Positions 5,375-55,331 of a DNA stretch of 64,000 bases are shown piece after piece. How positions within the stretch are numbered: position 1 is the first letter of the stretch; each line of letters begins with the position of its first letter. A program made the translations under genes and the position numbers. Origin of the DNA: Bacillota bacterium. GTDB lineage: Bacteria; Bacillota; Clostridia; Christensenellales; Christensenellaceae. The DNA is taken from NCBI GenBank assembly GCA_023393165.1, contig JAEWMJ010000057.1:94500-158499 (forward strand), written 5' to 3'. The notes beneath the pieces were generated by a model. It ran no database searches. It was not told the DNA's origin and saw only the letters and a list, made by a program, of their open reading frames with translations.

Positions 5375-6865
5375 ATGAAAAAAATTATTCATTTTTTATC
5401 CTTCCTCATTGTTTTGGTTTGCCTTTTTCCGTTTTTGTTTGGCTGCACTTCCGGTTTTGTATTCTCGCAGGATCAGCCCACCACCATTACCGTATGGCAT
5501 TTTTATACTTCGGGACTCAAAACGGCGTTCGAGGATATGATAAACGATTTCAACAATACGTACGGAAGTGAACACAATATCATTGTGGAGGCTGAAAACC
5601 AGGAGGACCTGGACACGCTGGCCGCAAGCATCATCGACTCCAGCAAAAAAAAGGTCGGGGCAGACAAACTCCCCAATATCATATTCGCATATACGGGTAC
5701 GGTCCTGGAACTTGACCGTCAGGACTTTGTCGCCAATCTGGACGACTATTTCACAAAGGACGAACTTTCCAGATACTATCCTTCTTTTCTGGAGGAAGGG
5801 AGAATCGGTGAAGAAAACAAACTGGAATGTTTCCCTGTAGCCAAATCCACCGAACTGCTTTTTATAAACAAAGCGGATTTCGACGAATTTGCAAAAAGCG
5901 CGAATGATTCCGGATTGTACGGAAAAGTATCTGCCGACGATTTTTCCACATTTGAAGGCATTGCAAATCTCTCGGATATATATTACAAATGGACGGATGC
6001 AAAAACACCTTCCGTCCAAAATGACGGAAAATCTTTTTTTGGAATGGACGCCACGCCGAATTTCATATCTGTCGGCCTGCGCCAGTTGGGAAACGTCCCG
6101 GTAACCGTATCCGGTGCAACGGGAACATTTTCTATGGATAAGGAAGCCGCTAGACGCCTCTGGGGTTTTTACTACAGCAATATTGTAACCGGAAGGTTTG
6201 CGGAAATCGGACGCTACCGGGCGGATGATATGAAAACGGGCGATCTGGTCGCCTATCTGGGTTCATCGGGAGGCGCAACCTATTTTCCCGAAGAAATAAT
6301 GCCCGGCAGTCCGGAGGCCCGGAAGACCGATCTGCTGGTATTGCCTTACCCTGTATTTCAGGGCGCGAAAGCAGTTTCCATTCAGCAGGGCGCCGGAATG
6401 TCCGTGATAAAAACGGATAAGCAGCATGAAGAAGCGTCGGCGCAGTTTATTAAATGGTTCACCGACCCTGCGCAGAATGTTAAATTCTCCTATATGTCCG
6501 GTTACCAGCCGGTCCAAAAAGCGGAATTTATCCGTGACGCGCAGGAAAAAGAAATTGCCGGGCTTAAAAACGCCACGGATACGGCGCTTCAAAATACGCT
6601 TGCGGCGCTTCAGACGGCGTCCCGCCAGTTTAACGATTACGAGCTGACGGTGGATAAGGAATTCACCGGCAGTTATGATGTGCGCAACATGTTCGGCATG
6701 ACCCTCTCCGAGGCCGCCAAAAACGCAAGAAGTTCTCTTTTGGTTGACCTTCAGGCAGGCAAGACGCTGGATGAGGCCCTGCCCGGCTACCTTGACTCAG
6801 CGAACTTTGAAAACTGGTACAATCAGATTCAAAAGGAATTCAGTAATCTGACGGCCGGCGAATAA
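5375..6865 (+). CDS. Extracellular solute-binding lipoprotein (ABC family-1 type sugar binder)
   Basis: Signal peptide with lipobox LFGC. Size of 496 aa and the sequence style (ITVWHFYT, KLPNIIFAY, FYYSN) are typical of family-1 SBPs. No cognate permease or ATPase genes are adjacent. Confidence 0.8.
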   Translation: MKKIIHFLSFLIVLVCLFPFLFGCTSGFVFSQDQPTTITVWHFYTSGLKTAFEDMINDFNNTYGSEHNIIVEAENQEDLDTLAASIIDSSKKKVGADKLPNIIFAYTGTVLELDRQDFVANLDDYFTKDELSRYYPSFLEEGRIGEENKLECFPVAKSTELLFINKADFDEFAKSANDSGLYGKVSADDFSTFEGIANLSDIYYKWTDAKTPSVQNDGKSFFGMDATPNFISVGLRQLGNVPVTVSGATGTFSMDKEAARRLWGFYYSNIVTGRFAEIGRYRADDMKTGDLVAYLGSSGGATYFPEEIMPGSPEARKTDLLVLPYPVFQGAKAVSIQQGAGMSVIKTDKQHEEASAQFIKWFTDPAQNVKFSYMSGYQPVQKAEFIRDAQEKEIAGLKNATDTALQNTLAALQTASRQFNDYELTVDKEFTGSYDVRNMFGMTLSEAAKNARSSLLVDLQAGKTLDEALPGYLDSANFENWYNQIQKEFSNLTAGE

Positions 6866-6869
6866 AACG

Positions 6870-9800
6870 ATGGAACTATTCGGCAGATTCAAACGGAACC
6901 CGGGGTCTCTTCGGAAAAAAATAATAGGACCGCAGATTATATTGCTCTTCATTCAGCTTGCCATTATTTTGTCCTGTATTTCGGGACTCGGACTGCTCCG
7001 AAACGCGCGGGACAATGAATTTGACAAGCTTGCCGCTTCCGTTCAAAGCCGCGCCCTTCAGGTGCAGAAATATTTCAATAACATTTCAATCAACGCCGGT
7101 TACGCATCCGACAAAATTCAGAACAGCATGCAGGATATTCTTTCAGAAAAGCGCCTTGAATCCGCAGATGAATTGCTGCAAAACCAGGGTCTTGTGGAAG
7201 CATTTGAGAAAGATTCCCTGCCCGCTCTGGTAAACGCTCTGGAATACTCTGAAACTTCCGGAGTTTTTATCGTACTCGATACAAACAACAACCCCGGCAC
7301 CAAGGCCGCGCTTTATCTGCGCGATACCCGGCCGGAAACCGTAAGCGCATCGGACTTGCTTTATGTGCGCGGACCTTATTCCATCGCAAGGGACCTGTCC
7401 ATCCCACTGGACAGCGATTGGAGCTTTGAGCAGAAATTTACCGGTTCGGAGAGCGATTATTATGTGAATCCCTGGAATGCAGCGCTGAATAAGAAAACCG
7501 ATATATCCGACCAATGCGGCTACTGGAGCGGCGCATATCAATTTTCAGAGACCGGACAGAGAATCATATCGTATACCCTTCCGCTTTTGGACCCAAACGG
7601 TAAACCTTTTGGCGTTTTCGGATTTGAAGTGAATGAAGATCTGCTGATAAAAAAACTGCCCTCGGACGAAATTCCATATCAAAACGGGTTTTACGCATTA
7701 TATAAAAGTGCTGATCCCGGCAGCCTGTCCGATAGTACGGTTTTCAGCGGAGCATACGCAAGCATTCTGAAGGGAGACCCGGTTTCCATCCGTCCGGCAG
7801 GTTACGGCACTCCCGCCCTCATACAACTTGCAGTGGACCGGGATCACCCGCCCATGCTAGGAATAAAAAACATACTGGAATTATACAGCCCGGGTTCCTG
7901 CTTTGCCGGCGATCAGTGGATACTGGCGGGTATCGTGCCGGAATCCCAGCTTTTATCGCTCTGGTACGGGATCATTCAGGTACTTGCGATCGCTTTTATT
8001 TTATCATTTGCCATCGGCCTGGCCGGTATATTCGGCTCAGGCTGGGCTTTTGCGCGTCCCATAGCCGCACTTGCCAAAAAGGTCCGGGCGGCCAATCCAA
8101 AAGAACCTATTGCACTCGGTAAAACAAACATCGTGGAAATTGACGATCTGACGGCGGCCCTGGAAAAAATGAGCAGCGACGTCGCGCAGGCGGCTTCCCG
8201 TATGTCCAAAATAATCGGTCTGGTGGGTTTGCCGCTTGGAGGGTATGAAGCGGATTTTCAGAACGGAATTGCTTATTTGACAGATTCCATGTTCGACCTT
8301 TTTGGGCTGCACAAGGAAAAATCCGGATCTAATACCCTGCCCCTGTCCGAATGGAAGGCCCTCCTGACGGGCATCTTAAACGACAAGGAAGAAGGGTTTG
8401 AGGACGTCTACCGCTATAATCCTTCGCCCAAGAATGTTCGCTGGCTGCGAATCAAAACGGCCGTCATTTCGCCGCAGATCGAACTCGGTATTGTTCTTGA
8501 CGTATCGGAAGAAGTCCTTCATCAGCGTCAAAATGAATTTGCAAGGGATTACGATTCGCTCACCGGCTTTATGAACCGGAAAGCGTTTTTAAACAAATGT
8601 ACCGAACTGATAGAGGCCGATCCGTCCGCCTCGGGTATTCTGCTTCTTGCCGATCTGTATTTCATCCGGAGCCTTCATGCGTCGGGCGAACTGGAAAACG
8701 AAACGCTTCTGCGTATCGCAGGACTTTTTGGAGAGTTCAGGCAATTCGGGGGCATATTGTCCCGTATTTCCGGCTATGAATTTGTGGTCTATATCCATGG
8801 CTGCGGCGATGCTCCGGGCATCATGGAATTTGCGCAGAAACAGTTCGGTTCCCCGCTTGCAATCAGGCGGATGGATGGGCAGATCCAGGAGTTTTTCTTT
8901 TCAATAGGCGCATGCCGTTATCCCGAGGACGCCAGAAATGTGGAAGACCTCATTTATTTCGCAGATTTTGCCCAAAACGAAGCCCAACGCCAGCCCCGGA
9001 AAGGTATCGTACCCTTCCAGATGGAAAACTATAACCAAAACAATATTATGGCGCAAAAAAACAACGCGTTTTATGAAATATTGTCTTTAAGGCAGCTTAA
9101 TATCAATTTAATTCCTATTATGGACGTCAATACGGGAAATATCATGGGTTACGACGCTCTTGTGGACTACCGCAACAGCTTTATAAAAAAAGCGGAGGAC
9201 ATGATTGCAATGGCGCGCATCCACAACCGCCTTTTTGAACTCGAGCGGCTTACGATGATCAGCATACTCGAGTATATCCGTGAAAACTATCATGAACTGA
9301 ACGGCGCAAAAGTTTTCTTTTCTTCCCTTACGAACGAGGTCATACCGCAGAGCGAAATTCAAAAGGTAGACAAAATTTACGGGGCCCTTTACTCCTCCAT
9401 CGTATTTAATCTGACCGATACCGAACACTGCGATAAACAGATATTCATAGATAAGAACAGAGAACTTAAAAAACGCGGTGTTGCAATTGCGATTGACCGG
9501 TACGGTACGGTCAATGCCAGCGAACTGCTGCTTCTAGATTTAAAACCGGGTTACCTGCGCATGGATCCTTCCATCATACAGGACGTGAACCTGGATCCCA
9601 ACAGGCATCAGCTTCTCCAGGCGCTCCTCTCCTACACCACCACCCGTGGGATCAGGACAATGGCCGTGGGCATAAGAACCAGGGAAGAACTCGAAACCGT
9701 TATCAAAATGGGCATCGATTATGTACAGGGCCCCTATCTTTGCGAACCCATGTCCGGGATCATTTTGCCGGAGAGTACCGCCGCACAGAATATCCGTATA

Positions 9801-10256
9801 AAAATCAAGGATGTTGAAAACTATAAATTCACACTTTCCGACGGTGACGAGCGGTACGCGCGTCTGCTAAAACTATTGCCGGCAGGTTCGCAGCTGACCG
9901 AACGCGAAAAAATGATTCTGCATCAGATTTGCATGGGAGAACTGAACAATGTGATCTCATCCGACCTCGGCATATCCGTCAACACTTTGAAAACGCATAT
10001 CCGCAACATTTACAGTAAATGCGGCGTAAAGAACAGAAAAGAACTGCTGATGTTGTCAGAATCCGGTGAAAGCCCGGACAGCGAACTCACCCTCAGGGAA
10101 AAAGAGATCCTTCGTTTGATCATTCTGGGCAAAACGAATCAGGAAATCACATCAGCGCTTTGCATCAGCAACAATACGGTACGCGTGCACATCTGGAACA
10201 TCTGCACCAAACTGGGCGTAAAAAACCGGAACGACCTGATGGAGATACGGCTATAA
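6870..10256 (+). CDS. Membrane sensor: TM-Cache-like-TM-linker-PAS-like-degenerate GGDEF-degenerate EAL-2x LuxR HTH
   Basis: TM helices at aa ~20-43 and ~362-394. Periplasmic segment with the Cache-like motif ISYTLPLLDPNGKPFGVFGFEV. The domains below were identified by motif. The start lies 4 nt after the SBP stop. Confidence 0.85.
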   Translation: MELFGRFKRNPGSLRKKIIGPQIILLFIQLAIILSCISGLGLLRNARDNEFDKLAASVQSRALQVQKYFNNISINAGYASDKIQNSMQDILSEKRLESADELLQNQGLVEAFEKDSLPALVNALEYSETSGVFIVLDTNNNPGTKAALYLRDTRPETVSASDLLYVRGPYSIARDLSIPLDSDWSFEQKFTGSESDYYVNPWNAALNKKTDISDQCGYWSGAYQFSETGQRIISYTLPLLDPNGKPFGVFGFEVNEDLLIKKLPSDEIPYQNGFYALYKSADPGSLSDSTVFSGAYASILKGDPVSIRPAGYGTPALIQLAVDRDHPPMLGIKNILELYSPGSCFAGDQWILAGIVPESQLLSLWYGIIQVLAIAFILSFAIGLAGIFGSGWAFARPIAALAKKVRAANPKEPIALGKTNIVEIDDLTAALEKMSSDVAQAASRMSKIIGLVGLPLGGYEADFQNGIAYLTDSMFDLFGLHKEKSGSNTLPLSEWKALLTGILNDKEEGFEDVYRYNPSPKNVRWLRIKTAVISPQIELGIVLDVSEEVLHQRQNEFARDYDSLTGFMNRKAFLNKCTELIEADPSASGILLLADLYFIRSLHASGELENETLLRIAGLFGEFRQFGGILSRISGYEFVVYIHGCGDAPGIMEFAQKQFGSPLAIRRMDGQIQEFFFSIGACRYPEDARNVEDLIYFADFAQNEAQRQPRKGIVPFQMENYNQNNIMAQKNNAFYEILSLRQLNINLIPIMDVNTGNIMGYDALVDYRNSFIKKAEDMIAMARIHNRLFELERLTMISILEYIRENYHELNGAKVFFSSLTNEVIPQSEIQKVDKIYGALYSSIVFNLTDTEHCDKQIFIDKNRELKKRGVAIAIDRYGTVNASELLLLDLKPGYLRMDPSIIQDVNLDPNRHQLLQALLSYTTTRGIRTMAVGIRTREELETVIKMGIDYVQGPYLCEPMSGIILPESTAAQNIRIKIKDVENYKFTLSDGDERYARLLKLLPAGSQLTEREKMILHQICMGELNNVISSDLGISVNTLKTHIRNIYSKCGVKNRKELLMLSESGESPDSELTLREKEILRLIILGKTNQEITSALCISNNTVRVHIWNICTKLGVKNRNDLMEIRL
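8532..9014 (+). other. GGDEF-like domain, degenerate
   Basis: DSLTGFMNRKAF entry motif. The signature is SGYEF (nt 8769-8783) instead of GG(D/E)EF. The metal and GTP-contacting ND..GH..GD block is replaced by LHASGELENETL. Confidence 0.75.
9051..9755 (+). other. EAL-like domain, degenerate
   Basis: YDALVDY (nt 9150-9170) replaces EAL. IDRYG replaces DDFG. RMD replaces K.D. AVGIR replaces AEGVE. The terminal YVQG is retained. Confidence 0.75.
9882..10055 (+). other. LuxR/FixJ-type HTH domain 1
   Basis: LTEREKMILHQICMGELNNVISSDLGISVNTLKTHIRNIYSKCGVKNRKELL. Confidence 0.85.
10077..10247 (+). other. LuxR/FixJ-type HTH domain 2
   Basis: LTLREKEILRLIILGKTNQEITSALCISNNTVRVHIWNICTKLGVKNRNDL. Confidence 0.85.
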
Positions 10257-10333
10257 TTATCAGATTGATAATCAAGTATTTTTTGAGCCATCCATAAACT
10301 AAATGGACCGTTTCCTTAAATAAATGAAGGCTA

Positions 10334-10447
10334 CTGAAAGCCCCAAATACAAGGCATTTTGAGCATTGCGACGTAAGCGTAGTACATCCTACGCTGAGGA
10401 GCAAGCGGAAAAATAACACAGTAGTTGGGGTTTATCAGCAGCCTGAA
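10334..10447. repeat. Intergenic repeat element, short copy (~114 nt)
   Basis: Shares three blocks with 26540..26790: 39/41, 14/14 and 39/43 identical by hand alignment. Internal hairpin agcgtagta/ctacgct. The ends are mutually complementary (ccccaa/ttgggg, ctga/tcag, gct/agc). It sits between two convergent gene ends. Confidence 0.75.
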
Positions 10448-10517
10448 TCTTTCTTTTGAAAAAAGAAAGATTCTACCAAAGAAAACCAATTATAATTTAT
10501 ATATGTCCCGGCAGCGC

Positions 10518-12038
10518 TCACATGCTGGCTTCATTCAAGTGATTCTGTATATTTTCAAGCACGTCTTCTTCCTTTATAAGCTCCAGGAAGTTGTTTACCA
10601 CATCCGCGTCAAACTGCGTCCCGATTCCCAGCTTCAGCTGGTCGATCGCTTCCTGCAGGGTAAAACGCATGCGGTACTGCCTGTCCGAGGTCATGGCGTC
10701 AAAAGCGTCCGCCACCGAGATGATCCGCGCCGCAAGCGGGATCGCATCGCCCCTCAGCCCGTCGGGATATCCCGTTCCGTCAATTCTTTCGTGATGGTGG
10801 CGCACAATAGGCACAACATCGCTGAACATGGAAACAGCTGAAAGTATCAGCGCGCCTTTCATCGGATGCCTTTTGATCTCCTCATAATCGCTGCTGCTCA
10901 GCTTATCGGTTTTCAGCAATATATCGTCGGCCGTTCCGATCTTTCCTATATCGTGGAAAACCCCGCCGATGCGCAGAATCTCCAGTTCGTTATCACTCAG
11001 GGCAAACCTTTTTCCGATCTGCACGGAAAAATAGGCGACCCTGTCCGAATGGCCCCGCGTGTATACGTCCTTGGCATCCACCGCCAGCCGCAGGGCTTCA
11101 ATCGTATCCATATACCTGGTTTTCAGCTGGGCATACGTACGGTTGAGTTCCTCATTCTTTACGTTTACAAGGGAATGCAAAAACGCGTTGTTGATGGAGG
11201 ATGCGGCCTGGCCCGCGTAAATCTCCAAAAGTTTCATGCCTTCTTCCGCCACATCCCTGCTGCTCACATAAATTACGCCGATCGCCTTACGCAACTCGTT
11301 GATAAGCGGAAGTATCACGCCGTCGGGCAGAATAGTGATTTCCAGTTTCATGCGCGCGGTGCCGATAGCTTCCATCAGCTTGGGGTCAAGCATGTTCATA
11401 AAGCTCTGGACATTCACGTTGTACATGCCGATTCCCCTGAATATACTCTTATCCGTACTGCCGATCTCGGTCAGGTTATCCATGAGGATAAAAGCGTCCG
11501 TGCTGTTGACCAGAGGCAGTATCCTGACCAGAATCTCTTCCAGAATATTGCCGATGGGCTGCAGCTGGTATATCTTGGGCACAGCCCCAAGAATGCTGTT
11601 GAGTCCGTCCCTGAATTTCTTGATCGTCCGCATCTGGGAGATGGATTTTATCCCGGATTCTACTAGAAGCAGCAGTTGATCCAGCCTTTCGCTTTTTTCG
11701 CAGTAAGCCTGGATATCCAGCATTTTAATGGTGTCGATCGGCGGAGCCAGATCCTTGTATCCGGTCAGAAGCAGGATGTAAAGTTCCTTGTCGAAACTCC
11801 GTATATTTTCCACCACTTCGTCCCCGTGCATGGGAAGCATGAAATAATCCAATATCAAAAGATCGTAATGGACTTCTTTCAATTGCTTTAACCCCTCCAC
11901 GGGGTTCGTATAGCCGTCTATTACGTACCCCATTCTTCTCAAAAGCGAGGATACCGAATCGATGATGCCTTCGTCATCGTCAATGATCATCAACCTGTAA
12001 TCTTCATTAATCTCTTCCTGAAGCTTATTCTTACGCAT
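10518..12038 (-). CDS. Response regulator: REC - GAF-like linker domain - HD-GYP phosphodiesterase
   Basis: REC motifs IIDDDEG, LLILDYFMP, LLLTG and YCEKS. HD-GYP motifs RGHSDRVA, FHDIGKIG and HHHERIDGTGYPDG. The start overlaps the kinase stop by 8 nt. Confidence 0.9.
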   Translation of the reverse strand: MRKNKLQEEINEDYRLMIIDDDEGIIDSVSSLLRRMGYVIDGYTNPVEGLKQLKEVHYDLLILDYFMLPMHGDEVVENIRSFDKELYILLLTGYKDLAPPIDTIKMLDIQAYCEKSERLDQLLLLVESGIKSISQMRTIKKFRDGLNSILGAVPKIYQLQPIGNILEEILVRILPLVNSTDAFILMDNLTEIGSTDKSIFRGIGMYNVNVQSFMNMLDPKLMEAIGTARMKLEITILPDGVILPLINELRKAIGVIYVSSRDVAEEGMKLLEIYAGQAASSINNAFLHSLVNVKNEELNRTYAQLKTRYMDTIEALRLAVDAKDVYTRGHSDRVAYFSVQIGKRFALSDNELEILRIGGVFHDIGKIGTADDILLKTDKLSSSDYEEIKRHPMKGALILSAVSMFSDVVPIVRHHHERIDGTGYPDGLRGDAIPLAARIISVADAFDAMTSDRQYRMRFTLQEAIDQLKLGIGTQFDADVVNNFLELIKEEDVLENIQNHLNEASM

Positions 12039-13884
12039 GAATCACTTCCCCTTCCACGTCCATAGGAATCGATATAAAGAACTCCGTGCCCACATTTTCC
12101 TGCGATTCAAACCACATGTTTCCCCTGAACATACCCTTTATTGTTGAATACGAAATATAAAGGCCTATGCCCGTCCCGTTTTTCCCTTTGGTCGTAACCA
12201 TTTTTTTAAACAGGCTGTCCATTACGCTTTTATCCAGCCCGCCTGCGAAGTCTTTGATGGAAAACACAATATTATTGTTATCCTGGTTGATGCGGAGAAT
12301 AATTTTGCCTTTTTTTCCCTTATATGCCTGAATGGCGTTCACAATGATATTGTCAAATATCTGAACCAGGCTGTTTACATCGCCTTTGATTGTAATTTTA
12401 TCATCTATATTGATTTCTTTCAACAATACGCAGTTCTGCCGGATCAATTCGTACTTCATCAGAATATCCACGCGGTGTATCAGTTCATGCAGCGTAAAAA
12501 CCCCGGTTAATGTGGAATTCAGTTTTACCGCCTGATCCTTTACCGTTGAGATTACATCCGACATATAGGCGATATAGGTCCGGATTTTTTTAATTGCGAC
12601 ATCCATTTCTCCGGCTATTTCATGATGGTCTTCCACTGTCACTTCAGGATCTCCCACGGATTTATCGTATTCCTGCACAAGCACTTCAAGTTGTCCAAGC
12701 GCTCCCGACGCAGATAGGATGGGCGTTTTGAGGTTGTGCGCGATCCCGCCTACCAATTCTCCCAGAGAAACCAGACGTTCTTTTTCCATCATGATCGCCT
12801 GGTTTTCCTGAATGGTGTCAAAGTCTTTCTTGCGCTGTGTGATGTCTTTTAAAAGAATAATTGTCGCAACATACTGGTTGCCTGCAAACACAGGCGTAAA
12901 CTCAACTTCAAAATATTTATTATATTCCTTCCCTCTTTTTAAGTTAAGTTCAGTTTTCACGATTTGATTCGTTTCCTTGGTTAGTTTTACGTCTTTTAGC
13001 ACCATATCTGCGCTGATCTCGACAGGATCAAAATATATTTTGAGCAGATTATACAGATTTTCATTCTGTTTGATATTATGAAAGGCCGAAAAATTTTTAA
13101 TAAAACTTTTATTAAAGTCAATGATATTTAGTTTTTCATCCACGACAATATAGCTGTCTGATATCCGGTTTACAACTGTTTTCAGGGCTACGGGAGTGAT
13201 CTTCATCAGGTTGAACTTAAGCATGCCTACCATATAACATACGATCGCGGTCAACATGGCGATGGGCGTGGCAAATATATTCAGCCACGGCACACCCAAG
13301 GTATACAGCAGGTTAACTAATAACGGCAATATGCTGCCTATAATCATCACAGAGGCTTGTTTAACCGATATACCGGTATTTTTAACAGAAAAAAACAACA
13401 CATATCCCAGCCCCATCAGCAGCATAAAATAAGAATATATGGTGTGAACATAAAAATACCATCCCATTACGATCGTAGGCCTTACAAACCCAAACGTATA
13501 TTGTATGTAAAACCAGTGATGATAATTATTTGTGAACGCCACTACGAGCGTTAAAGCTGGGATTACAAATAAAAATATATACTTCCAGTTGAAATCTATT
13601 CTGGAATAAGCAAAGGAACGGCCGATCAAAAAAATTTGTACAGGCAGCAAACTGGATCCGATATATGTAAAATACTCCATCCATATAATTAAAGGACTGT
13701 CGGGATCTTTATCCGCAAAAAACGCTTCAAAAAAAACAAAAAGACAAATGACGGTTATTTCCATGACAGCAGCAAGAAAAATCCGGTGAAGCTGCGTCTT
13801 GTTTCTTGTCAGGGCGATCAGAACCATAAGAAATACCGAAATGCCTATGCAAAAAATCAGTAGTAAATAAGTTCCCGAATCCAT
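12031..13884 (-). CDS. Sensor histidine kinase with N-terminal 7-TM domain and PAS-like domain
   Basis: About seven hydrophobic helices in aa 1-230. H-box LVGGIAHNLKTP. ATPase motifs NIIVNAIQAY, DFAGGL and GTGIGLY. Starts 8 nt after the NRPS stop. Confidence 0.9.
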   Translation of the reverse strand: MDSGTYLLLIFCIGISVFLMVLIALTRNKTQLHRIFLAAVMEITVICLFVFFEAFFADKDPDSPLIIWMEYFTYIGSSLLPVQIFLIGRSFAYSRIDFNWKYIFLFVIPALTLVVAFTNNYHHWFYIQYTFGFVRPTIVMGWYFYVHTIYSYFMLLMGLGYVLFFSVKNTGISVKQASVMIIGSILPLLVNLLYTLGVPWLNIFATPIAMLTAIVCYMVGMLKFNLMKITPVALKTVVNRISDSYIVVDEKLNIIDFNKSFIKNFSAFHNIKQNENLYNLLKIYFDPVEISADMVLKDVKLTKETNQIVKTELNLKRGKEYNKYFEVEFTPVFAGNQYVATIILLKDITQRKKDFDTIQENQAIMMEKERLVSLGELVGGIAHNLKTPILSASGALGQLEVLVQEYDKSVGDPEVTVEDHHEIAGEMDVAIKKIRTYIAYMSDVISTVKDQAVKLNSTLTGVFTLHELIHRVDILMKYELIRQNCVLLKEINIDDKITIKGDVNSLVQIFDNIIVNAIQAYKGKKGKIILRINQDNNNIVFSIKDFAGGLDKSVMDSLFKKMVTTKGKNGTGIGLYISYSTIKGMFRGNMWFESQENVGTEFFISIPMDVEGEVIHA

Positions 13885-13892
13885 TTCCCCTC

Positions 13893-16800
13893 CTACGGCT
13901 CGCAGATTGTTGTAAGAAAACGTGTTACATATTCAGAAGATACCTGCGGCCAGTCAAACCCACAATGATGGAGTAATTCTGCGGTTTTGTCAGACCGGAC
14001 TTCAATATTTTGTCCCATGACATCTTGCCTGGAAATATCGTTAATAATACCTGATAGTTTTTTGCCTTCATTCTGCCGACTGATGGCGCGTATGGTCCGA
14101 TCAAAAACTTTCGTTGGAACAAACGCCGGCGCCGGCAAGATCTCTCGGGACCAAGCGATTAAATCTTTCATGAAGATCCTGTTAGGATTATATAAATGGT
14201 ATACAACAGGGCAAATTCCGCCCACTTGTGATAAAATCAGCATTGCTTTTGCGCAAGAGTCCACAGGGGTCAACTCCAGCAGCAGATCCTTTAACTTTTC
14301 CGGCAGAACCCCGATTTCAAATATGGATTTTAATCGGTTTGCAAAGGCATTGTTCTCCTTTGCCATCTGAAACTTTCCATCGATTGTACGGGCGGTCAGG
14401 TTTCCGGCTCTAAAGATCCGGGCGTCCAACCCCTCTTCACGGGCCTTGTGCACTATTCCTTCAGCAAAAAACTTGCTTTTCACATATTCGTTTGAACCGT
14501 ACTCCTGGCCGATGTAGTAACAGGTTTCGTCAAACACGAACGTCTTGGCGTCTTCCCGCACATACTTCCCGGATACGCTCATTGTGGAAACATGCAATAG
14601 TGGCTTGCTTTCCCTCAAACAAAATTCAACAATATATTTTGTTCCCAGAACATTGATTTCTTCAAATTTCTCGGGCATTCCATAATGGCTGGTGATCGCC
14701 GCGCAGTGAATCACGGTTTTAATATCAGCAGCGATTTCCGCACTTCTTCCGTCGGGCATTCCAAGATTGGGACTGCAAATTTCCCCGCTCACCGCCTGCA
14801 CATTTTTAAGAATCTTTTCCGCCGCGTCTTTCCCGAAGTAAAACACAAGGGAATCCTTCAATTTTTGCCGGGCGTTCTCGTCATTATCCGCTCTAATTAT
14901 ACAATAAACACGCGATTGATACAAGCCGACAAGCTCGGATAGAACATGCGCGCCTAAAAATCCGTTTGCGCCGGTCAGCAGCGTACAGCTCAGGTCCGCC
15001 GGCTGGCAATCCGCACTTCTGGGCGTCAATGGAATGCCTTTTTTAGAGGACGCATAAATATCATATTTAGAAGGCGCCGCTTGTTTTAAAGAATGTTTGC
15101 TGTCGATATGTTCGCAAATTGATTCAAGCGTCTGCATTTCGTAAAAATCCTGCGTCCCAATTTCAAATCCATATTTCCATATGGCGGCTTGCACCTGGAT
15201 CACCGCGAGGGAATCTCCGCCCAAATGGAAAAAGTTGTCCGCAGGGCCGACGCTTTGAACCTTTAAAACCTGCTTCCAGACTTTAGCCATTTTCTTTTGG
15301 GTATCGCTCGTCAACACCTTTTTCCGGACGGTATTCTTTCGGCTGCCGGTCTCTGTCCCGGGATTGGGCAGTGCTTTCCTGTCCAGCTTTCCGCCGGGAG
15401 TCATGGGGAAGCTTTCCAGCGAAATAAAATGCGAAGGGATCATATAAACCGGCAGGCGTTTTTTCAGGCTTTCCCTAAGCGCCGTCTCATCCACATCCCC
15501 ATTTTGGGTGAAATATGCGCAAAGATATTTGTTCTCTTCTTTTCCACAAGCCAAAACAACCGTTTTATCAACGCCTTTTATATCCAGTATTGCACTTTCA
15601 ATCTCTCCAAGTTCTATGCGTAGACCGCGGATTTTTACCTGAAAATCGCTGCGTCCCAGGCAAACGACTTCGCCGCTTGGCTGGTAGGCGCAGATGTCGC
15701 CCGAATTGTACATGATTCCCTCGGCAAACGGATTCCTCAGATATCGCTCCCGGGTCAGATCTTCCCGGTTAATGTACCCCCGAGAAACGCCTTTTCCCGC
15801 AATATACAGCAAACCCGGGCACCCAAGCGGAACAGGGATAAGGTCGTCGTCCAGTATATAGTACTGCAGATTGGCTGCAGCTTTCCCCACAGTGATATTC
15901 GACGTATGCGTCAAATCCTTAAAAGACGAATAAACGGTCGTTTCAGTAGGCCCGTATACGCTGACGATGCGCGCGCGGGAATATTTTTTAAGCTTCCTTA
16001 AAAGATCAGGCGGGAATGGCTCTCCTCCGTGAACGATCAGTTTTAGATGAATCAGATTTTCCCTGAAAGTTTTGTCACTCATCAATATTTGCATGCGCGA
16101 CGGTGTGGTCTGCAAAAAATTTGCTCCGCCCAACCGCATCGCCGGGACCAGAAGATGCGGCTGACGGCATTCGTCATCAGTGCACATGATTACGGCCGCG
16201 CCAAAAAACAATGAGATAAGGGAGTCCGAAACAAAAATATCAAACGAAATAGATGATATGGACGCAACTACCGTGTCTTCGGAATAAAATTTATTTTGTC
16301 CGATCATTTCATACAGATTCAGAAGGCCGGATACTGTAACCATCACCCCTTTGGGCCTGCCTGTCGATCCAGAGGTATAGATCACCAGTGCCAGATCGCC
16401 GGGCCCGCTTGCTATCACAGGCCGGTACTCACCCGCATTTTTATCCACAGTTCCTGAAAACAATATGGTCCCCTGAAAGCCGCACTTATCGGGATCGTCC
16501 GTAATCAGCACATCGGCTTTGCTGTTCTGAAGCATATAGGTTTTCCGTTCTTCAGGATAAAAAGGATCTACCGGCATATAAGCGGCGCCCGCCTTCAGCG
16601 TTCCCAGTATGGCGCACATCATATCCAAAGACCGGTTCACGCTGATTCCGACGATGCGGTTCCTTCCAACCCCAAGCTCTATTAATTTTTTTGCATAGGC
16701 TCCGGCCGCACGGTCGAGCTCCGAAAAAGTCATTCTCCGGCCTTTGCAGATCAGAGCGATTTTATCAGGATACCGGTCGGCCGCCCTCTCAAACAGGCGG

Positions 16801-19800
16801 ATCACTGGAATGCCTTCATCATATTCATAACCGGTCCGATTAAAATCCACAAGTATTTTCTTCCGTTCCGCAGGCGTCAGCAGGCAGATCTTTTTGATTT
16901 CAATTTCAGGATTGCGCAGCACCATCTTAATCAAATTTTTAAAATGCAGCGCAATAGCCTTCAGGGTGCTTCTTTTAAATAATTTCGTACAATACTCAAA
17001 TTCGCATTCCAGCGTCGCGCTTTTATCGTAAACTTCCAGTGTAATGTCAAATTTGGAAATAGGCTGGCTCAATCTGACTACCGTTGTTTTCAAATCTTTT
17101 AATTCCAAGGAGGCCAGATCGAAGGTATTGTAGCTCAGCATAGTGCCGAATACCGGGTTCCGGCTGGCGTCCTTTTCCAGTTTCAAATCGTTTACCATGA
17201 GTTCAAAAGGATAAGTCTGATTCTGGAACGCCGCCAAGCAACCTGCGCGGACCCTCTCCAGCATTTCGGTAAATTTTTCGTCGCCGTCAATCCGGGTTCG
17301 CATTGGGAGTGTGTTCACAAACATTCCTACAATATCCATAAGTTCATGCCGGTTGCGGACCGAAACCGGCGCGCCCACAATAATATCCTTCTGACCCGTA
17401 TACTTGGAAAGAACAACCGTATACAAACTTAATAGCAGCATAAACATTGTAACGCCCGAGCGCTGCGCAAACGTCCGGAGCTGTAAAGTCAGGTCCTTCG
17501 GGATGGAAAAGGAAAGTCTGTTACCTTCCATGCTTTGCACCGCTCCCCTTGGATAATCGGTATTCAGATTCAAGGTTGGCAGGTCGCCTCCCAAGGTGTC
17601 CATCCAGAATCTGCGCTGAAAGTCAACATGCCCGGACGCAAGGTGCTCTTCTTGCCAGACCGAATAATCCTTATAGCTGACCATATTGGATGGGATACTC
17701 TTTCCAGCGTACAGGCGGGATAGCTGCGATAAGACGGTCTCGACTGAAGTTCCGTCCGCAATAATGTGATGCATATCCAAAAACAGAATAAATTCATCCG
17801 CTTCCATCCGAAGCAGATTTGCGCGTAAAAGAGGCGGAGCCTTCAGATCAAACGGCCTGGCGAGCGAATTCAGTCTCTTTTGCATCTCGCTTTGGGCGCA
17901 GTCTTCCACATTCAGTATGATTTCGGCCCTCGGAACGATCCGCTGACGCAACTCGCCATTCTTCATTTCAAAACGGGTCCGGAACGACTCGTTTTTCGCA
18001 ACAAGCCTTGTTAGGGAGCGCTGAAGCGCCTGTATATCCAGGCTGCCTTTGATATAATAGGCTCCGGGCATATTATAGACCGTATTCTGTCCAAAAAACC
18101 CTCCGGATACAATGAAAACCTGTCTTTGAGCGGCGGATACCGGATAATCTTTTCTTCCCCGTACGCTTATAATTGGACGGCTATCGGTTTTTTTAGTTTC
18201 GCCGTCTATGAGCTTTGCATAATTTTCCAAAGTAGGATTTTCATACACTTTTTCCAGGGATACTTCCACCTGAAAACGTTTATATACCTCGGCCGATACC
18301 ATTACAATAGAGAGGGAATCTCCGCCTATATCAAAAAAGTTATCTTCTCTTCCAATCTTTTTAAGTTTCAGAACGTTTCCCCAAATTTCCGCCAGACCCT
18401 TCTCGGTTGCAGTAGAAAGCGAAGCGTTTTCATCCCTGTTGGCCTGCCGCTCTTCTTTATCAGGCTCAGGCAGCCCTTTTCTGTCCACCTTTCCGCTTAC
18501 GCCCAGGGGAAGGCTGTCCATCCAGATAAAATAGGATGGAACCATATACGCGGGCAGTTCTTTGGCCAGTTCACCCCTTAACTGGTTGACGTTTTTTCTG
18601 CGGGTTCCGCAGATATATGCGCACAGGTACTTTCTTCCGGTGTCGTCCTGCCTGTCCACCACTGCGCACGCGCTGATTCCGTCTATCTGCAGCAGTTTTG
18701 CTTCAATTTCACCTGGTTCGATACGGAATCCTCTGATTTTAACCTGCTGGTCCACCCTGCCGAGGTATTCGATCTCGCCCATCGGGAACCAGCGGGTCAT
18801 ATCTCCCGTTTTGTAAATCCTCCAGCCGGGTTTAAAAGGATCGGACACAAAAGACTCTGCCGTTAATTCAGGCCTGTCCAGATACCCTCTTGAGACGCCA
18901 TCCCCTCCGATATACAGTTCTCCGTGCACGCCGATGGGAACCGGGTTTTTATGCTTATCCAGAATATATGCGTATACACCGGGAAGCGGTTTTCCTATGT
19001 TGACCGTGTTGGAATCGGTCAGTTCCTTGTATGATGCGGCGATTGTAACTTCAGTCGGTCCATAAAAATTAAATATCCTGGCGGCAGTTTTTTCCTTGAT
19101 TTCGTTTAAAAGACGCACGGGAAGGACGTCCCCTCCCAGCATGATCTCTTTCAAGCTCTTTAGGCATTCGTCCGCGCCTTTACCGGACATAAAAAGCTGC
19201 ATTCTTGAAGGAGTCGTCATGATTTTATTGATCCTGGTCCTGATGATAAGACTGACCAGATTCTGCGGTATGTTGTGCTCGGTTTCTCCGGCCAGAACCA
19301 CGGTGCCTCCGTTCAGAAGCGTAGGAAATGTTTCCATAATAAACAGATCAAAAGAAACGGTCGCTGCGGACAGAACAATATTTCCGGGCGTAAAATCCAT
19401 TATTTCGGAAAGGGTATGCATAAAATGAACGATGGAATGATGCTCCACCATAACGCCCTTGGGCTTTCCGGTTGAACCTGACGTGTAGATGACATAGGCC
19501 AGATCGCGCAAACGATTGCCAGGCTGAATCGCTTCCCCGCATTCGGGCAGTGAGACAAGGATGTCCGCCGGTATCACTTCGCAGATATCGTCGCACTTTT
19601 CCGCAAGCTGCAAAGAGGCGATCACGCATTTGGCGCCGCTTTCTTTTAGTTCATACTGCACACGGTCGGCAGGGAAATCTGGATCGATGGGCAAAAACGC
19701 CGCTCCGGCCCGCAGGACCGCAAGTATGGATACGATGAGAGTATATTCCCTTGCGATCATAATGCCCGCGATGTCATCCCTGCCCAGCCCCTTGTTTATT

Positions 19801-21296
19801 AAAAAATACGCTGCTTTATTTACAAGCGCGTTTAATTGGCGGTAAGTCAATACGTCCGTTCCCGAAATCAGGGCGATTTCATCGGGCGTTTTGTTCATTT
19901 GCTGCTGAAAAAGCGCGTCCAGGCCCCGGTCGGCGGTGAAATCCGTCTTGTTGGCATTAAATTCGTACAGCACGCGTTTGAGTTCCTCGGGCGGCATAAT
20001 GTTCATTTCAAAAAGCTTTTTATATGGATGCGAAATAGCGTCCGTCAGAATGGTAAGGCAATGATCGTGGATGTACTCGATCTCTTTTATTGAGAAAAGA
20101 GGGACCTGATGATCATAGTCAACAATCAGCCTTCCCTCTCCCTCACGGTCGTTGATATGGATGTTGAGGGAGTTTACCTGGCTTCCGGAAAAATGCCACC
20201 TGCCTTCATAGGTAAAGTTGTTCGTGTTTTTTTCAAACTGTACGTTCTGATAGGAAAGCGTAATATCATAAAGTGAATCCAGGCCCTTATGCTTTTTCCT
20301 GAGATCGGAAAGCAGCAGTTCGTACGGATATTTTTGGTGCTTTAAAATACGGAACCACTCGCCCGAAACCATTTTTACAAATTCATCGAAGGGCGTATCG
20401 TCCAGTAATTTAATGCGTATGGGCACAGTGCTGACAAACATGCCCACCGTGTTCCTTTCGTCCCTGGACCGGTTGAATACCGGTACGCCGATGACAATAT
20501 CGTCCTTGCCCAATATCCGGTTGATATAGATGCATAGTACCGATAAATACAGGGCGAAGATGGACACGTTTTGTTTTTCACAGTATGCCCTCATATGGTC
20601 GGCAACGGTTTTTGAAATGATACATGCTTTCCTGCGCGCCCGGGTGCTTACATAATTAGTTTTCTTTTGCTTTAAAACGGTTGGTTCCGGAATATCCGAA
20701 AATATTTCGTTCAGACAGAGCTTGTCCGTAAGAAAACGTTTGGAATTCAGGTATTCCTGTTCCCGCCGGATGTAACTGGTATAAGAATCCCCCTGAAATT
20801 CAGCCGGCTCACCCCCCGATAAATAAATATCGTAGTATTCCATTACCTGATTGCTGAACATGACAAGGGACCATGCGTCCGATATGATATGATGCACTTT
20901 TGCGTACCAGACAAATTCGTCATTGCTGATCCTGACGATGGCTATATAAAAAAGTTCCCGGTCCAGCAGGGGCAGATATGACTGCGATTGCATGCTGTCC
21001 CACTCGTAAAGCCCCTGCAATCCCTTTGCGCTGAAATCGAGATAATCGTATTGGCTGTAGGCAAACGGACTTACATACTGAAAAGGTTCGCCGTTGATTT
21101 CCGTGATGCGGATACGCATCGCTTCGTTATTTTTAATAAAAAGGTTAATGGATTTTACAATCAGATCAAGATTGAGCGGTCCTTTGATTTTTAATGTGCC
21201 TGCATTGTTCCACATGCTTGTGCCCGGATGCAGCTTCTCTGTATACCATATTCTTTGTTGAGGATGTGTCAAAGGATAAAATTTATTTTCAATCAT
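13893..21296 (-). CDS. Bimodular non-ribosomal peptide synthetase with terminal thioester reductase (C-A-T-C-A-T-R)
   Basis: A single 2467-aa ORF. The domain motifs are listed in the sub-features below. No thioesterase domain is present. Confidence 0.95.
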   Translation of the reverse strand: MIENKFYPLTHPQQRIWYTEKLHPGTSMWNNAGTLKIKGPLNLDLIVKSINLFIKNNEAMRIRITEINGEPFQYVSPFAYSQYDYLDFSAKGLQGLYEWDSMQSQSYLPLLDRELFYIAIVRISNDEFVWYAKVHHIISDAWSLVMFSNQVMEYYDIYLSGGEPAEFQGDSYTSYIRREQEYLNSKRFLTDKLCLNEIFSDIPEPTVLKQKKTNYVSTRARRKACIISKTVADHMRAYCEKQNVSIFALYLSVLCIYINRILGKDDIVIGVPVFNRSRDERNTVGMFVSTVPIRIKLLDDTPFDEFVKMVSGEWFRILKHQKYPYELLLSDLRKKHKGLDSLYDITLSYQNVQFEKNTNNFTYEGRWHFSGSQVNSLNIHINDREGEGRLIVDYDHQVPLFSIKEIEYIHDHCLTILTDAISHPYKKLFEMNIMPPEELKRVLYEFNANKTDFTADRGLDALFQQQMNKTPDEIALISGTDVLTYRQLNALVNKAAYFLINKGLGRDDIAGIMIAREYTLIVSILAVLRAGAAFLPIDPDFPADRVQYELKESGAKCVIASLQLAEKCDDICEVIPADILVSLPECGEAIQPGNRLRDLAYVIYTSGSTGKPKGVMVEHHSIVHFMHTLSEIMDFTPGNIVLSAATVSFDLFIMETFPTLLNGGTVVLAGETEHNIPQNLVSLIIRTRINKIMTTPSRMQLFMSGKGADECLKSLKEIMLGGDVLPVRLLNEIKEKTAARIFNFYGPTEVTIAASYKELTDSNTVNIGKPLPGVYAYILDKHKNPVPIGVHGELYIGGDGVSRGYLDRPELTAESFVSDPFKPGWRIYKTGDMTRWFPMGEIEYLGRVDQQVKIRGFRIEPGEIEAKLLQIDGISACAVVDRQDDTGRKYLCAYICGTRRKNVNQLRGELAKELPAYMVPSYFIWMDSLPLGVSGKVDRKGLPEPDKEERQANRDENASLSTATEKGLAEIWGNVLKLKKIGREDNFFDIGGDSLSIVMVSAEVYKRFQVEVSLEKVYENPTLENYAKLIDGETKKTDSRPIISVRGRKDYPVSAAQRQVFIVSGGFFGQNTVYNMPGAYYIKGSLDIQALQRSLTRLVAKNESFRTRFEMKNGELRQRIVPRAEIILNVEDCAQSEMQKRLNSLARPFDLKAPPLLRANLLRMEADEFILFLDMHHIIADGTSVETVLSQLSRLYAGKSIPSNMVSYKDYSVWQEEHLASGHVDFQRRFWMDTLGGDLPTLNLNTDYPRGAVQSMEGNRLSFSIPKDLTLQLRTFAQRSGVTMFMLLLSLYTVVLSKYTGQKDIIVGAPVSVRNRHELMDIVGMFVNTLPMRTRIDGDEKFTEMLERVRAGCLAAFQNQTYPFELMVNDLKLEKDASRNPVFGTMLSYNTFDLASLELKDLKTTVVRLSQPISKFDITLEVYDKSATLECEFEYCTKLFKRSTLKAIALHFKNLIKMVLRNPEIEIKKICLLTPAERKKILVDFNRTGYEYDEGIPVIRLFERAADRYPDKIALICKGRRMTFSELDRAAGAYAKKLIELGVGRNRIVGISVNRSLDMMCAILGTLKAGAAYMPVDPFYPEERKTYMLQNSKADVLITDDPDKCGFQGTILFSGTVDKNAGEYRPVIASGPGDLALVIYTSGSTGRPKGVMVTVSGLLNLYEMIGQNKFYSEDTVVASISSISFDIFVSDSLISLFFGAAVIMCTDDECRQPHLLVPAMRLGGANFLQTTPSRMQILMSDKTFRENLIHLKLIVHGGEPFPPDLLRKLKKYSRARIVSVYGPTETTVYSSFKDLTHTSNITVGKAAANLQYYILDDDLIPVPLGCPGLLYIAGKGVSRGYINREDLTRERYLRNPFAEGIMYNSGDICAYQPSGEVVCLGRSDFQVKIRGLRIELGEIESAILDIKGVDKTVVLACGKEENKYLCAYFTQNGDVDETALRESLKKRLPVYMIPSHFISLESFPMTPGGKLDRKALPNPGTETGSRKNTVRKKVLTSDTQKKMAKVWKQVLKVQSVGPADNFFHLGGDSLAVIQVQAAIWKYGFEIGTQDFYEMQTLESICEHIDSKHSLKQAAPSKYDIYASSKKGIPLTPRSADCQPADLSCTLLTGANGFLGAHVLSELVGLYQSRVYCIIRADNDENARQKLKDSLVFYFGKDAAEKILKNVQAVSGEICSPNLGMPDGRSAEIAADIKTVIHCAAITSHYGMPEKFEEINVLGTKYIVEFCLRESKPLLHVSTMSVSGKYVREDAKTFVFDETCYYIGQEYGSNEYVKSKFFAEGIVHKAREEGLDARIFRAGNLTARTIDGKFQMAKENNAFANRLKSIFEIGVLPEKLKDLLLELTPVDSCAKAMLILSQVGGICPVVYHLYNPNRIFMKDLIAWSREILPAPAFVPTKVFDRTIRAISRQNEGKKLSGIINDISRQDVMGQNIEVRSDKTAELLHHCGFDWPQVSSEYVTRFLTTICEP
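13896..14990 (-). other. NRPS terminal reductase (SDR-type) domain
   Basis: NAD(P)-binding TGANGFLGAHV (aa 2108) and catalytic YVKSK (aa 2271). Confidence 0.85.
15102..15305 (-). other. NRPS carrier (thiolation) domain 2
   Basis: FFHLGGDSL, with Ser at aa 2029. Confidence 0.85.
15363..16814 (-). other. NRPS adenylation domain 2
   Basis: LVIYTSGSTGRPKG (aa 1637), FDIFVSD, SVYGPTE, GLLYIAGKGVSRGY, YNSGD, GRSDFQVKIRGLRIELGEIE, GKLDRK (aa 1969). Confidence 0.9.
16872..18155 (-). other. NRPS condensation domain 2
   Basis: MHHIIADGTS at aa 1175-1184. Confidence 0.85.
18201..18413 (-). other. NRPS carrier (thiolation) domain 1
   Basis: FFDIGGDSL, with the phosphopantetheine Ser at aa 994. Confidence 0.85.
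18462..19934 (-). other. NRPS adenylation domain 1
   Basis: LTYRQLN, YVIYTSGSTGKPKG (aa 601), FDLFIME, NFYGPTE, GELYIGGDGVSRGY, YKTGD, GRVDQQVKIRGFRIEPGEIE, GKVDRK (aa 935). Confidence 0.9.
19992..21287 (-). other. NRPS condensation domain 1 (leading/starter position)
   Basis: HHIISDAWS at aa 135-143. Boundaries are approximate. Confidence 0.8.
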
Positions 21297-21624
21297 GATA
21301 TTTGCTCCATGTGCCGAATGATGTTTAAATAATTTTCCCTTTTAAAGAATTAACCCGGAGTTAATACTTGTTCAATTATGGTCTTTTAGATTAACACCCT
21401 GACTCTTATTTTATTTTAATATTAAGGAATCATTTCATAATATTTTCAAGAATACTTAATGTAGTCTATGTTTGGCTTTTTGATCCTTTATATTGTATCT
21501 TATCATATTTAATAGTTTTTTGTCTACAAATTATGCCGTATTTCTTCTAAATTTTGTAAATTATTGAATGCCTTATCATAATTTGTCATAAAATAAATTC
21601 AGGCGCTTTATAATCAAATTCAGG

Positions 21625-21649
21625 CAAAAAAATACCGCAAGAGCGGTAT
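21625..21649 (-). terminator. Rho-independent terminator
   Basis: Minus-strand stem ataccgc-tctt-gcggtat (7 bp) followed by a T run, 65 nt downstream of the stop at 21714. It separates that gene from the NRPS promoter region. Confidence 0.65.
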
Positions 21650-26504: not shown

Positions 26505-26539
26505 TTTTTATGATAAATATAATGTGTCCTCTATATGAA

Positions 26540-40845: not shown

Positions 40846-40924
40846 TATGCCCGCCTCCCAATAATATATCTAGGATTATTATGAGTTTTAAGACAGATAG
40901 AGTCAAAGGTGCCAATTAGATCTC

Positions 40925-41083: not shown

Positions 41084-41117
41084 AAGTTTTCCTCCTATCC
41101 GATTAATGTTATAGAGG

Positions 41118-55312: not shown

Positions 55313-55331
55313 GAATTTTTTCCTCCAGTAA

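Follow-up and report, generated by a model that had tools for sequence, protein, structure and literature searches.

The stretch of DNA described here (64,000 nucleotides, in the following called the window) belongs to a Bacillota bacterium of the family Christensenellaceae and corresponds to positions 94,500 to 158,499 of contig JAEWMJ010000057.1 in GenBank assembly GCA_023393165.1. At 10518-21296 its minus strand carries three consecutive genes, which encode a bimodular non-ribosomal peptide synthetase (NRPS) ending in a reductase domain, a histidine kinase with a seven-transmembrane (7TM) sensor domain, and a response regulator with an HD-GYP domain, the predicted output of which is hydrolysis of cyclic di-GMP (c-di-GMP). 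Here we present a description of this trio and of its conservation, together with an analysis of how the kinase may be related to the product of the synthetase. The features of the locus are listed below in the direction of transcription; the coordinates of the NRPS domains, which are named condensation (C), adenylation (A), thiolation (T) and reductase (R) domains, are approximate.

21497-21529, minus strand: candidate sigma-70-type promoter, consisting of TTGTAGACAA, a spacer and the extended -10 element TG-TAAGAT (promoter scan)
21297-21496, minus strand: AT-rich NRPS leader, in which a conserved TTCATCGGCA box directly precedes the ribosome-binding site (RBS) (sequence and alignment)
13893-21296, minus strand: bimodular NRPS, 2467 aa, C-A-T-C-A-T-R (Pfam and motif positions)
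19977-21296, minus strand: NRPS domain C1
18459-19910, minus strand: NRPS domain A1
18207-18395, minus strand: NRPS domain T1
16851-18152, minus strand: NRPS domain C2
15354-16799, minus strand: NRPS domain A2
15102-15290, minus strand: NRPS domain T2
13896-14987, minus strand: NRPS domain R
12031-13884, minus strand: histidine kinase, 617 aa, 7TM-PAS (Pfam)
13216-13884, minus strand: 7TM sensor domain of the kinase, residues 1-223 (HisKA_7TM, E = 2e-32)
12031-13215, minus strand: cytoplasmic part of the kinase (HATPase_c, weak PAS_9)
12841-13167, minus strand: PAS-like domain of the kinase
12055-12840, minus strand: DHp and catalytic domains of the kinase
12736-12738, minus strand: phospho-accepting His383 of the kinase (H-box)
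10518-12038, minus strand: response regulator REC-DUF3369-HD-GYP, 506 aa (Pfam)
11664-11990, minus strand: REC domain (Asp64 at 11847-11849)
11172-11657, minus strand: DUF3369 domain
10599-11084, minus strand: HD-GYP domain
10320-10480, minus strand: structured intergenic region at the operon end (terminator-like match at 10344-10327)

The NRPS yielded Pfam matches to Condensation (twice), AMP-binding (twice), PP-binding (twice) and a terminal NAD_binding_4/Epimerase family, in the order C-A-T-C-A-T-R, and no Pfam match to a thioesterase (TE) domain over its 2467 aa. The HHxxxD motif is intact in both C domains (HHIISDAWS at residue 135 in C1, HHIIADG at residue 1176 in C2), C1 having Ala where Gly is usual (HHIISDA). 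The serines of the T domains, Ser994 and Ser2029, lie in GGDS. The R domain shows TGANGFLGAHV at residue 2108 and YVKSK at residue 2271; its TGxxGxxG and Ser/Thr-Tyr-Lys residues (2108, 2237, 2271) are intact and invariant in six orthologues. Its best match in the PDB is the AusA reductase (4f6c, E = 1.2e-44), which is consistent with the release of an aldehyde as assumed in a preliminary description of this DNA. The PDB matches of C1 include the starter C domains RzmA (7c1h) and CDA-C1 (4jn3); PDB similarity is not discriminating as a means of identifying C1 as a starter C domain, as TycC outranks both. The approximate pocket codes are DLMSMGFIAK for A1 and DISSVGVVYK for A2; we know of no established code that they match, and no amino acids were assigned to them.

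Because the NRPS starts with a C domain, most of its relatives encode a fatty acyl-AMP ligase (FAAL) and an acyl carrier protein (ACP), and the R domain is nearest to the AusA reductase, the product is probably an N-acyl dipeptide aldehyde. Such an N-acylated compound would be unable to cyclize to a pyrazinone and would partition into membranes, which would fit a membrane-embedded sensor.

The kinase gene follows directly. Its N-terminal part matches HisKA_7TM (PF16927) with 113.3 bits against a cut-off of 28.6, its C-terminal part matches HATPase_c and, weakly, PAS_9, and no REC or HPt domain was found by Pfam. The H-box GGIAHNLKTPI (with His383), the N box and the G box are all invariant in the relatives. 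An AlphaFold2 model shows seven helices at the N terminus (residues 3-223), then a PAS-like fold and finally the DHp and catalytic domains. Most of the modeled 7TM domain, which includes a beta hairpin at residues 126-140, has a pLDDT of 70-92, and a ten-residue block near residue 135 falls to 60. Regarding fold comparisons with Foldseek, the cytoplasmic part matches PAS/LOV histidine kinases in the PDB, and the search for the fold of the 7TM domain returned only matches to the cytoplasmic PAS-kinase part. The 7TM domain is presumed to be the hypervariable, ligand-binding part of the protein.

The regulator matches Response_reg, DUF3369 and HD_5/HD in Pfam. The residues of the REC acidic pocket (D20, D21, D64, T92, K115) are invariant, as are the motifs of the HD-GYP domain, all of which are present: RGHSDRV, FHDIGK (residue 361) and HHHERIDGTGYP (residue 414), the last being of the HHExxDGxGYP type. 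Both the NRPS and the kinase are much less conserved than this protein, which is still 64-69% identical to the window's regulator in orthologues with an NRPS identity of only 43-48%. As it contains no DNA-binding output domain, the kinase/regulator pair cannot directly control transcription of the NRPS gene. The REC-DUF3369-HD-GYP architecture corresponds to the 'RpfY family', of which two members, VCA0210 and DVU0722, have been studied (Galperin and Chou, bioRxiv 10.1101/2021.11.05.467447).

The coordinates of the three genes, the domain order of the NRPS with its motif residues, the missing TE domain and both gene junctions are exactly as given in the preliminary description. The TAG of the NRPS gene is followed by GAGGGGAA and the ATG of the kinase gene (8-nt gap, with the RBS GGAGGGG overlapping the stop codon), and the TAA of the kinase gene and the ATG of the regulator gene overlap by 8 nt (12031-12038). 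As to the earlier statement that no terminator-like hairpin precedes the operon end, 14 terminator-like matches were found within 10518-21296 versus 12.8 expected from shuffled sequences, which is chance level. Upstream, a good intrinsic terminator at 21632-21649, at the end of a DUF6530 gene, precedes the NRPS leader. The candidate promoter (TAGACA-18-TAAGAT with TG) lies ~200 nt upstream of the NRPS ATG; when the upstream regions of six related species are aligned, neither of its boxes varies, and its function as a promoter is putative. The TTCATCGGCA box directly upstream of the NRPS RBS (21297-21330, minus strand) is likewise kept in six species and may be a regulatory site. No Rfam family, c-di-GMP riboswitches included, matched the NRPS leader, and a c-di-GMP riboswitch that would close a feedback loop was found neither in the window nor in six related loci. 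Downstream, the region between the regulator gene and the convergent gene (10257-10530) folds far better than shuffled sequences (z = -5.2). After the regulator stop it contains a perfect 13-bp AT-rich hairpin, GAATCTTTCTTTT/AAAAGAAAGATTC; 10320-10480 also holds a G+C-richer outer stem with a T-rich run behind it, and is probably a terminator for the convergent genes. Given the tight junctions, the flanking terminators and structure and the chance level of internal terminators, the three genes are likely co-transcribed. Promoter-like matches inside the NRPS coding region (e.g., 14214-14187) may give basal expression of the kinase.

The conservation of the trio was surveyed starting from the NRPS and, separately, starting from the kinase (loci found in these surveys are numbered with the prefix L). 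An identical copy of the NRPS is present on a 324-kb JGI contig, some relatives are 67-72% identical, and a large set of the same length is 43-48% identical. Gene tables were available for four relatives, all of which contain the NRPS, the 7TM kinase and the REC-DUF3369-HD-GYP regulator; three of these four have flanks that bear no relation to the flanks of the window. With the T2-R end of the NRPS as the query, a scan that included a single genome for each species gave 38 loci, almost all labeled as Christensenellaceae, Christensenellales or 'Bacillota bacterium' metagenome-assembled genomes (MAGs). Several MAGs of the window's relatives come from bioreactors. According to tblastn, every orthologue with at least 43% NRPS identity and enough downstream DNA is followed by the kinase and then by the regulator, and the NRPSs without the pair are distant ones, from Paenibacillus (~30%) and at L032 (35%). 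Upstream of the NRPS, most relatives carry genes for an HD-domain protein (214 aa), a FAAL, an ACP and a phosphopantetheinyl transferase (PPTase) (e.g., L007 4573-7884), which are missing from the window's own clade (the window, L003, L004 and L008).

Two side observations concern the loci of this first survey. Most distant relatives have, downstream of the regulator gene, genes for a LigB/AMMECR1 fusion and a radical SAM protein (e.g., L007 19307-21516), which the window's clade lacks. Locus L017 (JBLNCA010000025.1), labeled as a 'Burkholderiales bacterium' MAG, has the gene order of the Bacillota MAG locus L018 at almost equal coordinates; the two kinases fall into one 90%-identity cluster and the NRPS domains are 81-91% identical, and the L017 contig is probably mis-binned.

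Starting from the kinase makes the survey free of bias towards NRPSs. At 90% identity, the kinase family falls into at least 3845 clusters (E <= 1e-60 to the family profile), and three sampled members that are 43-48% identical to the window kinase (P0239, P0219 and P0253) each stand behind a reductase-terminated NRPS. From a metagenome scan with the kinase alignment, the best 80 of 359 relatives were kept and then subjected to reconstruction of open reading frames and de-replication. Several of the contigs are labeled as human-gut metagenome and hold C-A-T-C-A-T-R NRPSs followed by the same kinase family. Regarding the 43 clusters found only through the kinase, with at least 1.5 kb of upstream DNA each, an NRPS lies directly upstream of the kinase in 41. 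The distance from NRPS stop to kinase start in these ranges from -56 to +83 nt (median 14), and 32 of the 41 synthetases have a recognizable R domain. Regarding the 64 clusters with at least 2.5 kb of downstream DNA, an HD-GYP gene is next on the same strand in 54 and nearby in 60; it lies 2-4.5 kb further on in five clusters, on the other strand in one and upstream in one (L039). Regulators of the gut type are shorter (~355-370 aa) and have no DUF3369 domain. By these counts, the kinase subfamily is in practice dedicated to NRPSs. The functional coupling of the synthetase with the sensor and HD-GYP pair, as proposed in the preliminary description, is supported by a neighborhood conserved in both surveys; the trio is one conserved operon in many Clostridia, human-gut species included, and almost certainly a conserved functional unit.

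Variants of the arrangement were also seen in the kinase-first survey. At L063 (4910-11791), a further one of the 43 clusters, the NRPS and the kinase form one uninterrupted open reading frame, which is either a natural fusion or a sequencing error. The same kinase/regulator pair follows a bimodular NRPS ending in a TE domain at L124 (2869-9939) and single-module C-A-T proteins at L043 (7109-11428) and L061 (5656-10008), the C-terminal ~400 residues of which match no Pfam family and show only weak NAD(P)-binding matches. At L048 and L130-L133, from a widespread gut-type species, a gene for an HtrA-like Trypsin-PDZ protease lies divergently and directly upstream of the NRPS (1280/1311-2410/2441, minus strand), which is of note as peptide aldehydes inhibit proteases.

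The pocket residues of the A domains (Stachelhaus type, by alignment to GrsA) were compared with the kinase sequences in 30 non-redundant pairs of loci in which the cytoplasmic parts of the kinases are at least 85% identical. Regarding the six pairs with identical pocket codes, the identity of the 7TM domain was 0.98 versus 0.96 for the cytoplasmic part, whereas the 24 pairs with different codes showed values of 0.71 and 0.93, respectively. The identity deficit of the 7TM domain increased with the number of pocket differences (Spearman 0.85, the 30 pairs being non-independent and the p-value nominal). The window itself and L003 differ at four A2 pocket positions, with identities of 0.90 in the cytoplasmic part and 0.66 in the 7TM domain. 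The boundary within the kinase is sharp and lies at residue ~220: in 12 close pairs with different codes, the share of differing kinase residues is 23-48% up to residue 220 and 1-15% beyond. Within groups that have near-identical kinase cores and more than one type of 7TM domain, every type has its own set of pocket codes.

The same pattern is apparent in nucleotide alignments. In a sliding window, L017 and L020 are 92-95% identical over 17 kb save for two separate troughs, one in the A2 core (down to 59%) and the other covering the end of the R domain and the 7TM region (65%). L057 and L081 are 99-100% identical except for the A1 core (55%) and the end of the R domain plus the 7TM region (60%). 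In the pairs L079/L123 and L072/L079, identity is 55-70% throughout the NRPS and the 7TM region, a contiguous block in a background of 97-100% that includes the rest of the kinase and the regulator; the block stops at the junction between the 7TM domain and the cytoplasmic part. It is difficult to account for co-variation of pocket and 7TM domain with a fixed kinase core without assuming that the 7TM domain binds the product of the NRPS.

The circuit proposed from these comparisons would operate as follows. The NRPS would assemble a dipeptide, probably N-acylated via the leading C domain, which the R domain would release as an aldehyde. This product, lipophilic if N-acylated, would be recognized by the 7TM domain of the co-encoded kinase, which would phosphorylate the REC domain of the adjacent regulator. 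The HD-GYP domain would then hydrolyze c-di-GMP, so that accumulation of the product would lower the level of the second messenger. Strains would hold matched alleles of synthetase and sensor, i.e., specificity types, as in agr or comQXP. The structure of the product, ligand binding by the 7TM domain and the direction of the effect on HD-GYP activity are predictions, and we regard sensing of the NRPS product by the kinase, with c-di-GMP hydrolysis as the consequence, as reasonably probable. Sensing may take place between cells or may be private to the producer. The preliminary description had suggested that the metabolite is either sensed by, or produced under the control of, a second-messenger circuit. 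The evidence favors the former, because the regulator has no DNA-binding output, the NRPS leader contains no c-di-GMP riboswitch, and the 7TM domain co-diversifies with the A-domain pockets.

Several points weigh against sensing of the product. The close pairs behind the co-diversification statistics are not independent, the pocket codes depend on a manually entered GrsA reference sequence (which yields the expected DAWTIAAICK), and the 7TM domain generally evolves faster than any other part of the kinase (mean identity 0.40, the kinase core having 0.59). Over all 37 loci, a partial Mantel test was positive only for the 7TM domain but weak (r = 0.13-0.16); the inference of co-diversification rests on the close-pair analysis and not on this test. 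L029/L030 and L006/L009 change the A2 code with a small drop in the 7TM domain (identities of 0.90 and 0.93, respectively). Regarding gene content, the kinase of L060 stands without an NRPS (the sole such cluster of the 43), L046, L122 and L042 have no nearby HD-GYP gene, and acylation is putative in the window's clade, where the FAAL-ACP-PPTase genes of most relatives are absent. Regarding the output, one characterized RpfY member also hydrolyzes cGAMP, and the other is inactive as the unphosphorylated full-length protein (bioRxiv 10.1101/2021.11.05.467447).

Three other explanations of the same data were considered. Mere co-expression, in which the kinase senses another cue (the state of the membrane, or a compound from host or diet) and the operon couples peptide production with a fall in c-di-GMP, is unlikely. 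Operon membership alone needs no more than this, and no HisKA_7TM ligand is known to us, the name having turned up in no more than two papers, both on two-component systems of archaea. Some synthetases of the module end in a TE domain or in an unassigned terminal domain, so that no single chemotype is required. However, co-expression leaves unexplained why divergence in near-identical operons is limited to an A-domain core and the 7TM domain although the 1.5-4 kb in between are conserved, and why 7TM types map one-to-one on sets of pocket codes.

Handling of the product as cargo by the 7TM domain, which would export the peptide or couple its export to signaling so that the kinase would report flux rather than extracellular concentration, is rather improbable. 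The conserved trio contains no transporter gene, and co-variation of the 7TM domain with the A-domain pocket would be expected equally if it were an exporter specific for its substrate; AgrB, which processes and exports the agr signal, likewise co-varies with that signal. Against this, HisKA_7TM is known only as the N-terminal domain of kinases, the Pfam matches of the kinase include no transporter family, Foldseek led to kinases only, and seven helices without an ATPase or a known antiporter signature would make an unusual exporter. Even so, such a role would still imply that the 7TM domain binds the product.

Independent diversifying selection combined with linkage, with the product in an arms race with target proteases, the surface-exposed 7TM domain varying for another reason (e.g., as a phage receptor) and the two seeming correlated as neighbors that recombine jointly, is very improbable: the contiguous blocks of L079/L123 and L072/L079 do resemble a single recombination import and the pairs are phylogenetically non-independent, but the islands of L017/L020 and L057/L081 are separated by sequence of background identity, none of the six identical-code pairs shows a 7TM deficit despite 3-4% cytoplasmic divergence, and the block boundary falls at a domain junction inside the kinase gene.

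The remainder of the window contains a number of further genes. No PPTase, FAAL, ACP or MbtH gene was found in it by tblastn with the proteins of relatives or by Pfam analysis of 46 of the 50 candidate open reading frames (four beyond 59.7 kb were left out). The preliminary description had reported MbtH, PPTase and transporter genes as missing; the searches agree with this for the first two but not for transporters, as ABC-type genes are present at three places (388-1248, 26778-28574 and 51944-56819), none of which adjoins the operon. On the plus strand at 5375-10256, an SBP_bac_8 gene is followed by a gene for a 1128-aa protein, which is convergent with the regulator gene. Besides a weak dCache match, this protein has GGDEF, EAL and two HTH domains of the LuxR type; no canonical GG[DE]EF was found in it by a simple motif search. 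The GGDEF-EAL-LuxR gene (6870-10256) was rejected as a part of the module, being found among the loci searched only at L003 and at L001, which is the window's own contig. A second HD_5/HD protein (28994-30814, plus strand, 606 aa) contains HDLGK; a simple pattern search found no HHExxDGxGYP in it, and it may be a degenerate HD-GYP protein. Besides the gene for a large serine recombinase (39331-40845), the stretch 39331-42229 (minus strand) contains a pemK RNA motif (41359-41437, 59 bits) and encodes a small protein with a sigma-70 region-4-like match; it has the lowest G+C content of the window (0.36) and is probably an integrated mobile element. Genes for Tex and an ABC-F protein are neighbors of the module, at a distance of a few kb, in the window (24327-28574) as well as at the distant gut-type loci L048 and L130 (~16000-20500), which hints that the locus is old and vertically inherited.

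Among known systems, the layout of synthase, membrane kinase and REC-HD-GYP regulator, with a signal converted into c-di-GMP hydrolysis, is that of the DSF/Rpf system of Xanthomonas (RpfF synthase, RpfC kinase, RpfG regulator). The presumed signal of the trio would likewise be lipophilic, and the regulators belong to the same broad group (RpfG/RpfY families). The trio differs in that its synthase is an NRPS and not an RpfF-type crotonase, in that its kinase is a plain 7TM-PAS protein whereas RpfC is a hybrid with REC and HPt domains, in that its regulator has an additional DUF3369 (GAF-like) domain that RpfG has not, and in that the host is a Gram-positive anaerobe. By analogy, the trio would thus work like Rpf without being a member of that system. 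To our knowledge, matched specificity alleles as seen here are not a feature of Rpf.

Such alleles are known from agr (AgrBDCA, staphylococci) and comQXP (Bacillus), in which a block that is hypervariable within the species consists of the signal-determining region and the transmembrane sensor of the kinase, with a conserved cytoplasmic core. Co-variation of the signal region and the kinase sensor around a fixed kinase core is the definition of the agr and comQXP specificity groups. The signals of these systems are ribosomal peptides (thiolactone or isoprenylated) and the regulators bind DNA, whereas here specificity would lie in the A-domain pockets of an NRPS and the output in an HD-GYP domain; neither AgrB/AgrD-like nor ComQ/ComX-like genes were found at the locus by Pfam or in the gene tables.

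Regarding chemistry, the nearest systems are the dipeptide-aldehyde NRPSs of gut Clostridia and AusA of Staphylococcus aureus, which share the (C-)A-T-C-A-T-R organization and reductive release. For such clusters, Guo et al. (2017, Cell) and Schneider and Balskus (2018, Tetrahedron; ruminopeptin) reportedly assigned the role of protease inhibitors directed at host or competitor. The searchable literature did not mention any kinase or HD-GYP protein dedicated to them. The present locus differs from the gut loci in that its relatives are labeled as Christensenellaceae or Christensenellales MAGs and in that the window has no FAAL-ACP-PPTase genes. According to secondary sources, the gut products are dipeptide aldehydes that inhibit proteases or cyclize to pyrazinones. 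Pyrazinone and pyrazine autoinducers (DPO-VqmA in Vibrio cholerae, AI-3 in E. coli, leupeptin-derived signals in Klebsiella oxytoca) are likewise signals derived from amino aldehydes or amino ketones. They differ in being made by threonine dehydrogenase, by tRNA-synthetase chemistry or by the leupeptin pathway, and in being read by cytoplasmic regulators or unrelated kinases, with no co-encoded 7TM kinase or HD-GYP output. In K. oxytoca, according to one paper (PMC11480411), a peptide-aldehyde pathway feeds autoinducer production.

The searchable full-text literature contained no link between c-di-GMP, a peptide aldehyde and an NRPS, none between a dipeptide aldehyde and a histidine kinase, and the name 'HisKA_7TM' only in the two papers on archaea mentioned above. 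No link of HD-GYP, NRPS and histidine kinase in Clostridia was found in a search that extended to the searchable literature and not to the cluster diagrams of the primary gut-NRPS papers. A quorum-sensing review of May 2026 mentions no such system. Judged by analogy, the trio would be of a known kind, i.e., an autoinducer synthase with a sensor kinase and an HD-GYP regulator, and its NRPS-built version would be new. Tentatively, and with the chances put at slightly less than even, we propose a hitherto unrecognized class of Gram-positive cell-cell signaling, in which (lipo)dipeptide aldehydes made by NRPSs would be autoinducers with within-species pherotypes, read by a dedicated family of 7TM kinases and converted directly by HD-GYP regulators into c-di-GMP hydrolysis. 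On this view, the widespread 'protease-inhibitor' NRPS clusters of human-gut clostridia would be signaling loci in the first place.

So far, the products of the reductase-terminated NRPS clusters in gut Clostridia have been taken as inhibitors of host or competitor proteases. If the proposed circuit is correct, these peptides would be self-recognized signals that set the level of a second messenger, and plausibly motility, adhesion or sporulation with it, and there would be strain-specific dialects within species, for the study of which natural allele pairs such as L057/L081 and L017/L020 are on offer. The uncharacterized HisKA_7TM sensor domain would gain a candidate class of ligands, and the trio would represent a Gram-positive counterpart of the Rpf/DSF circuit.

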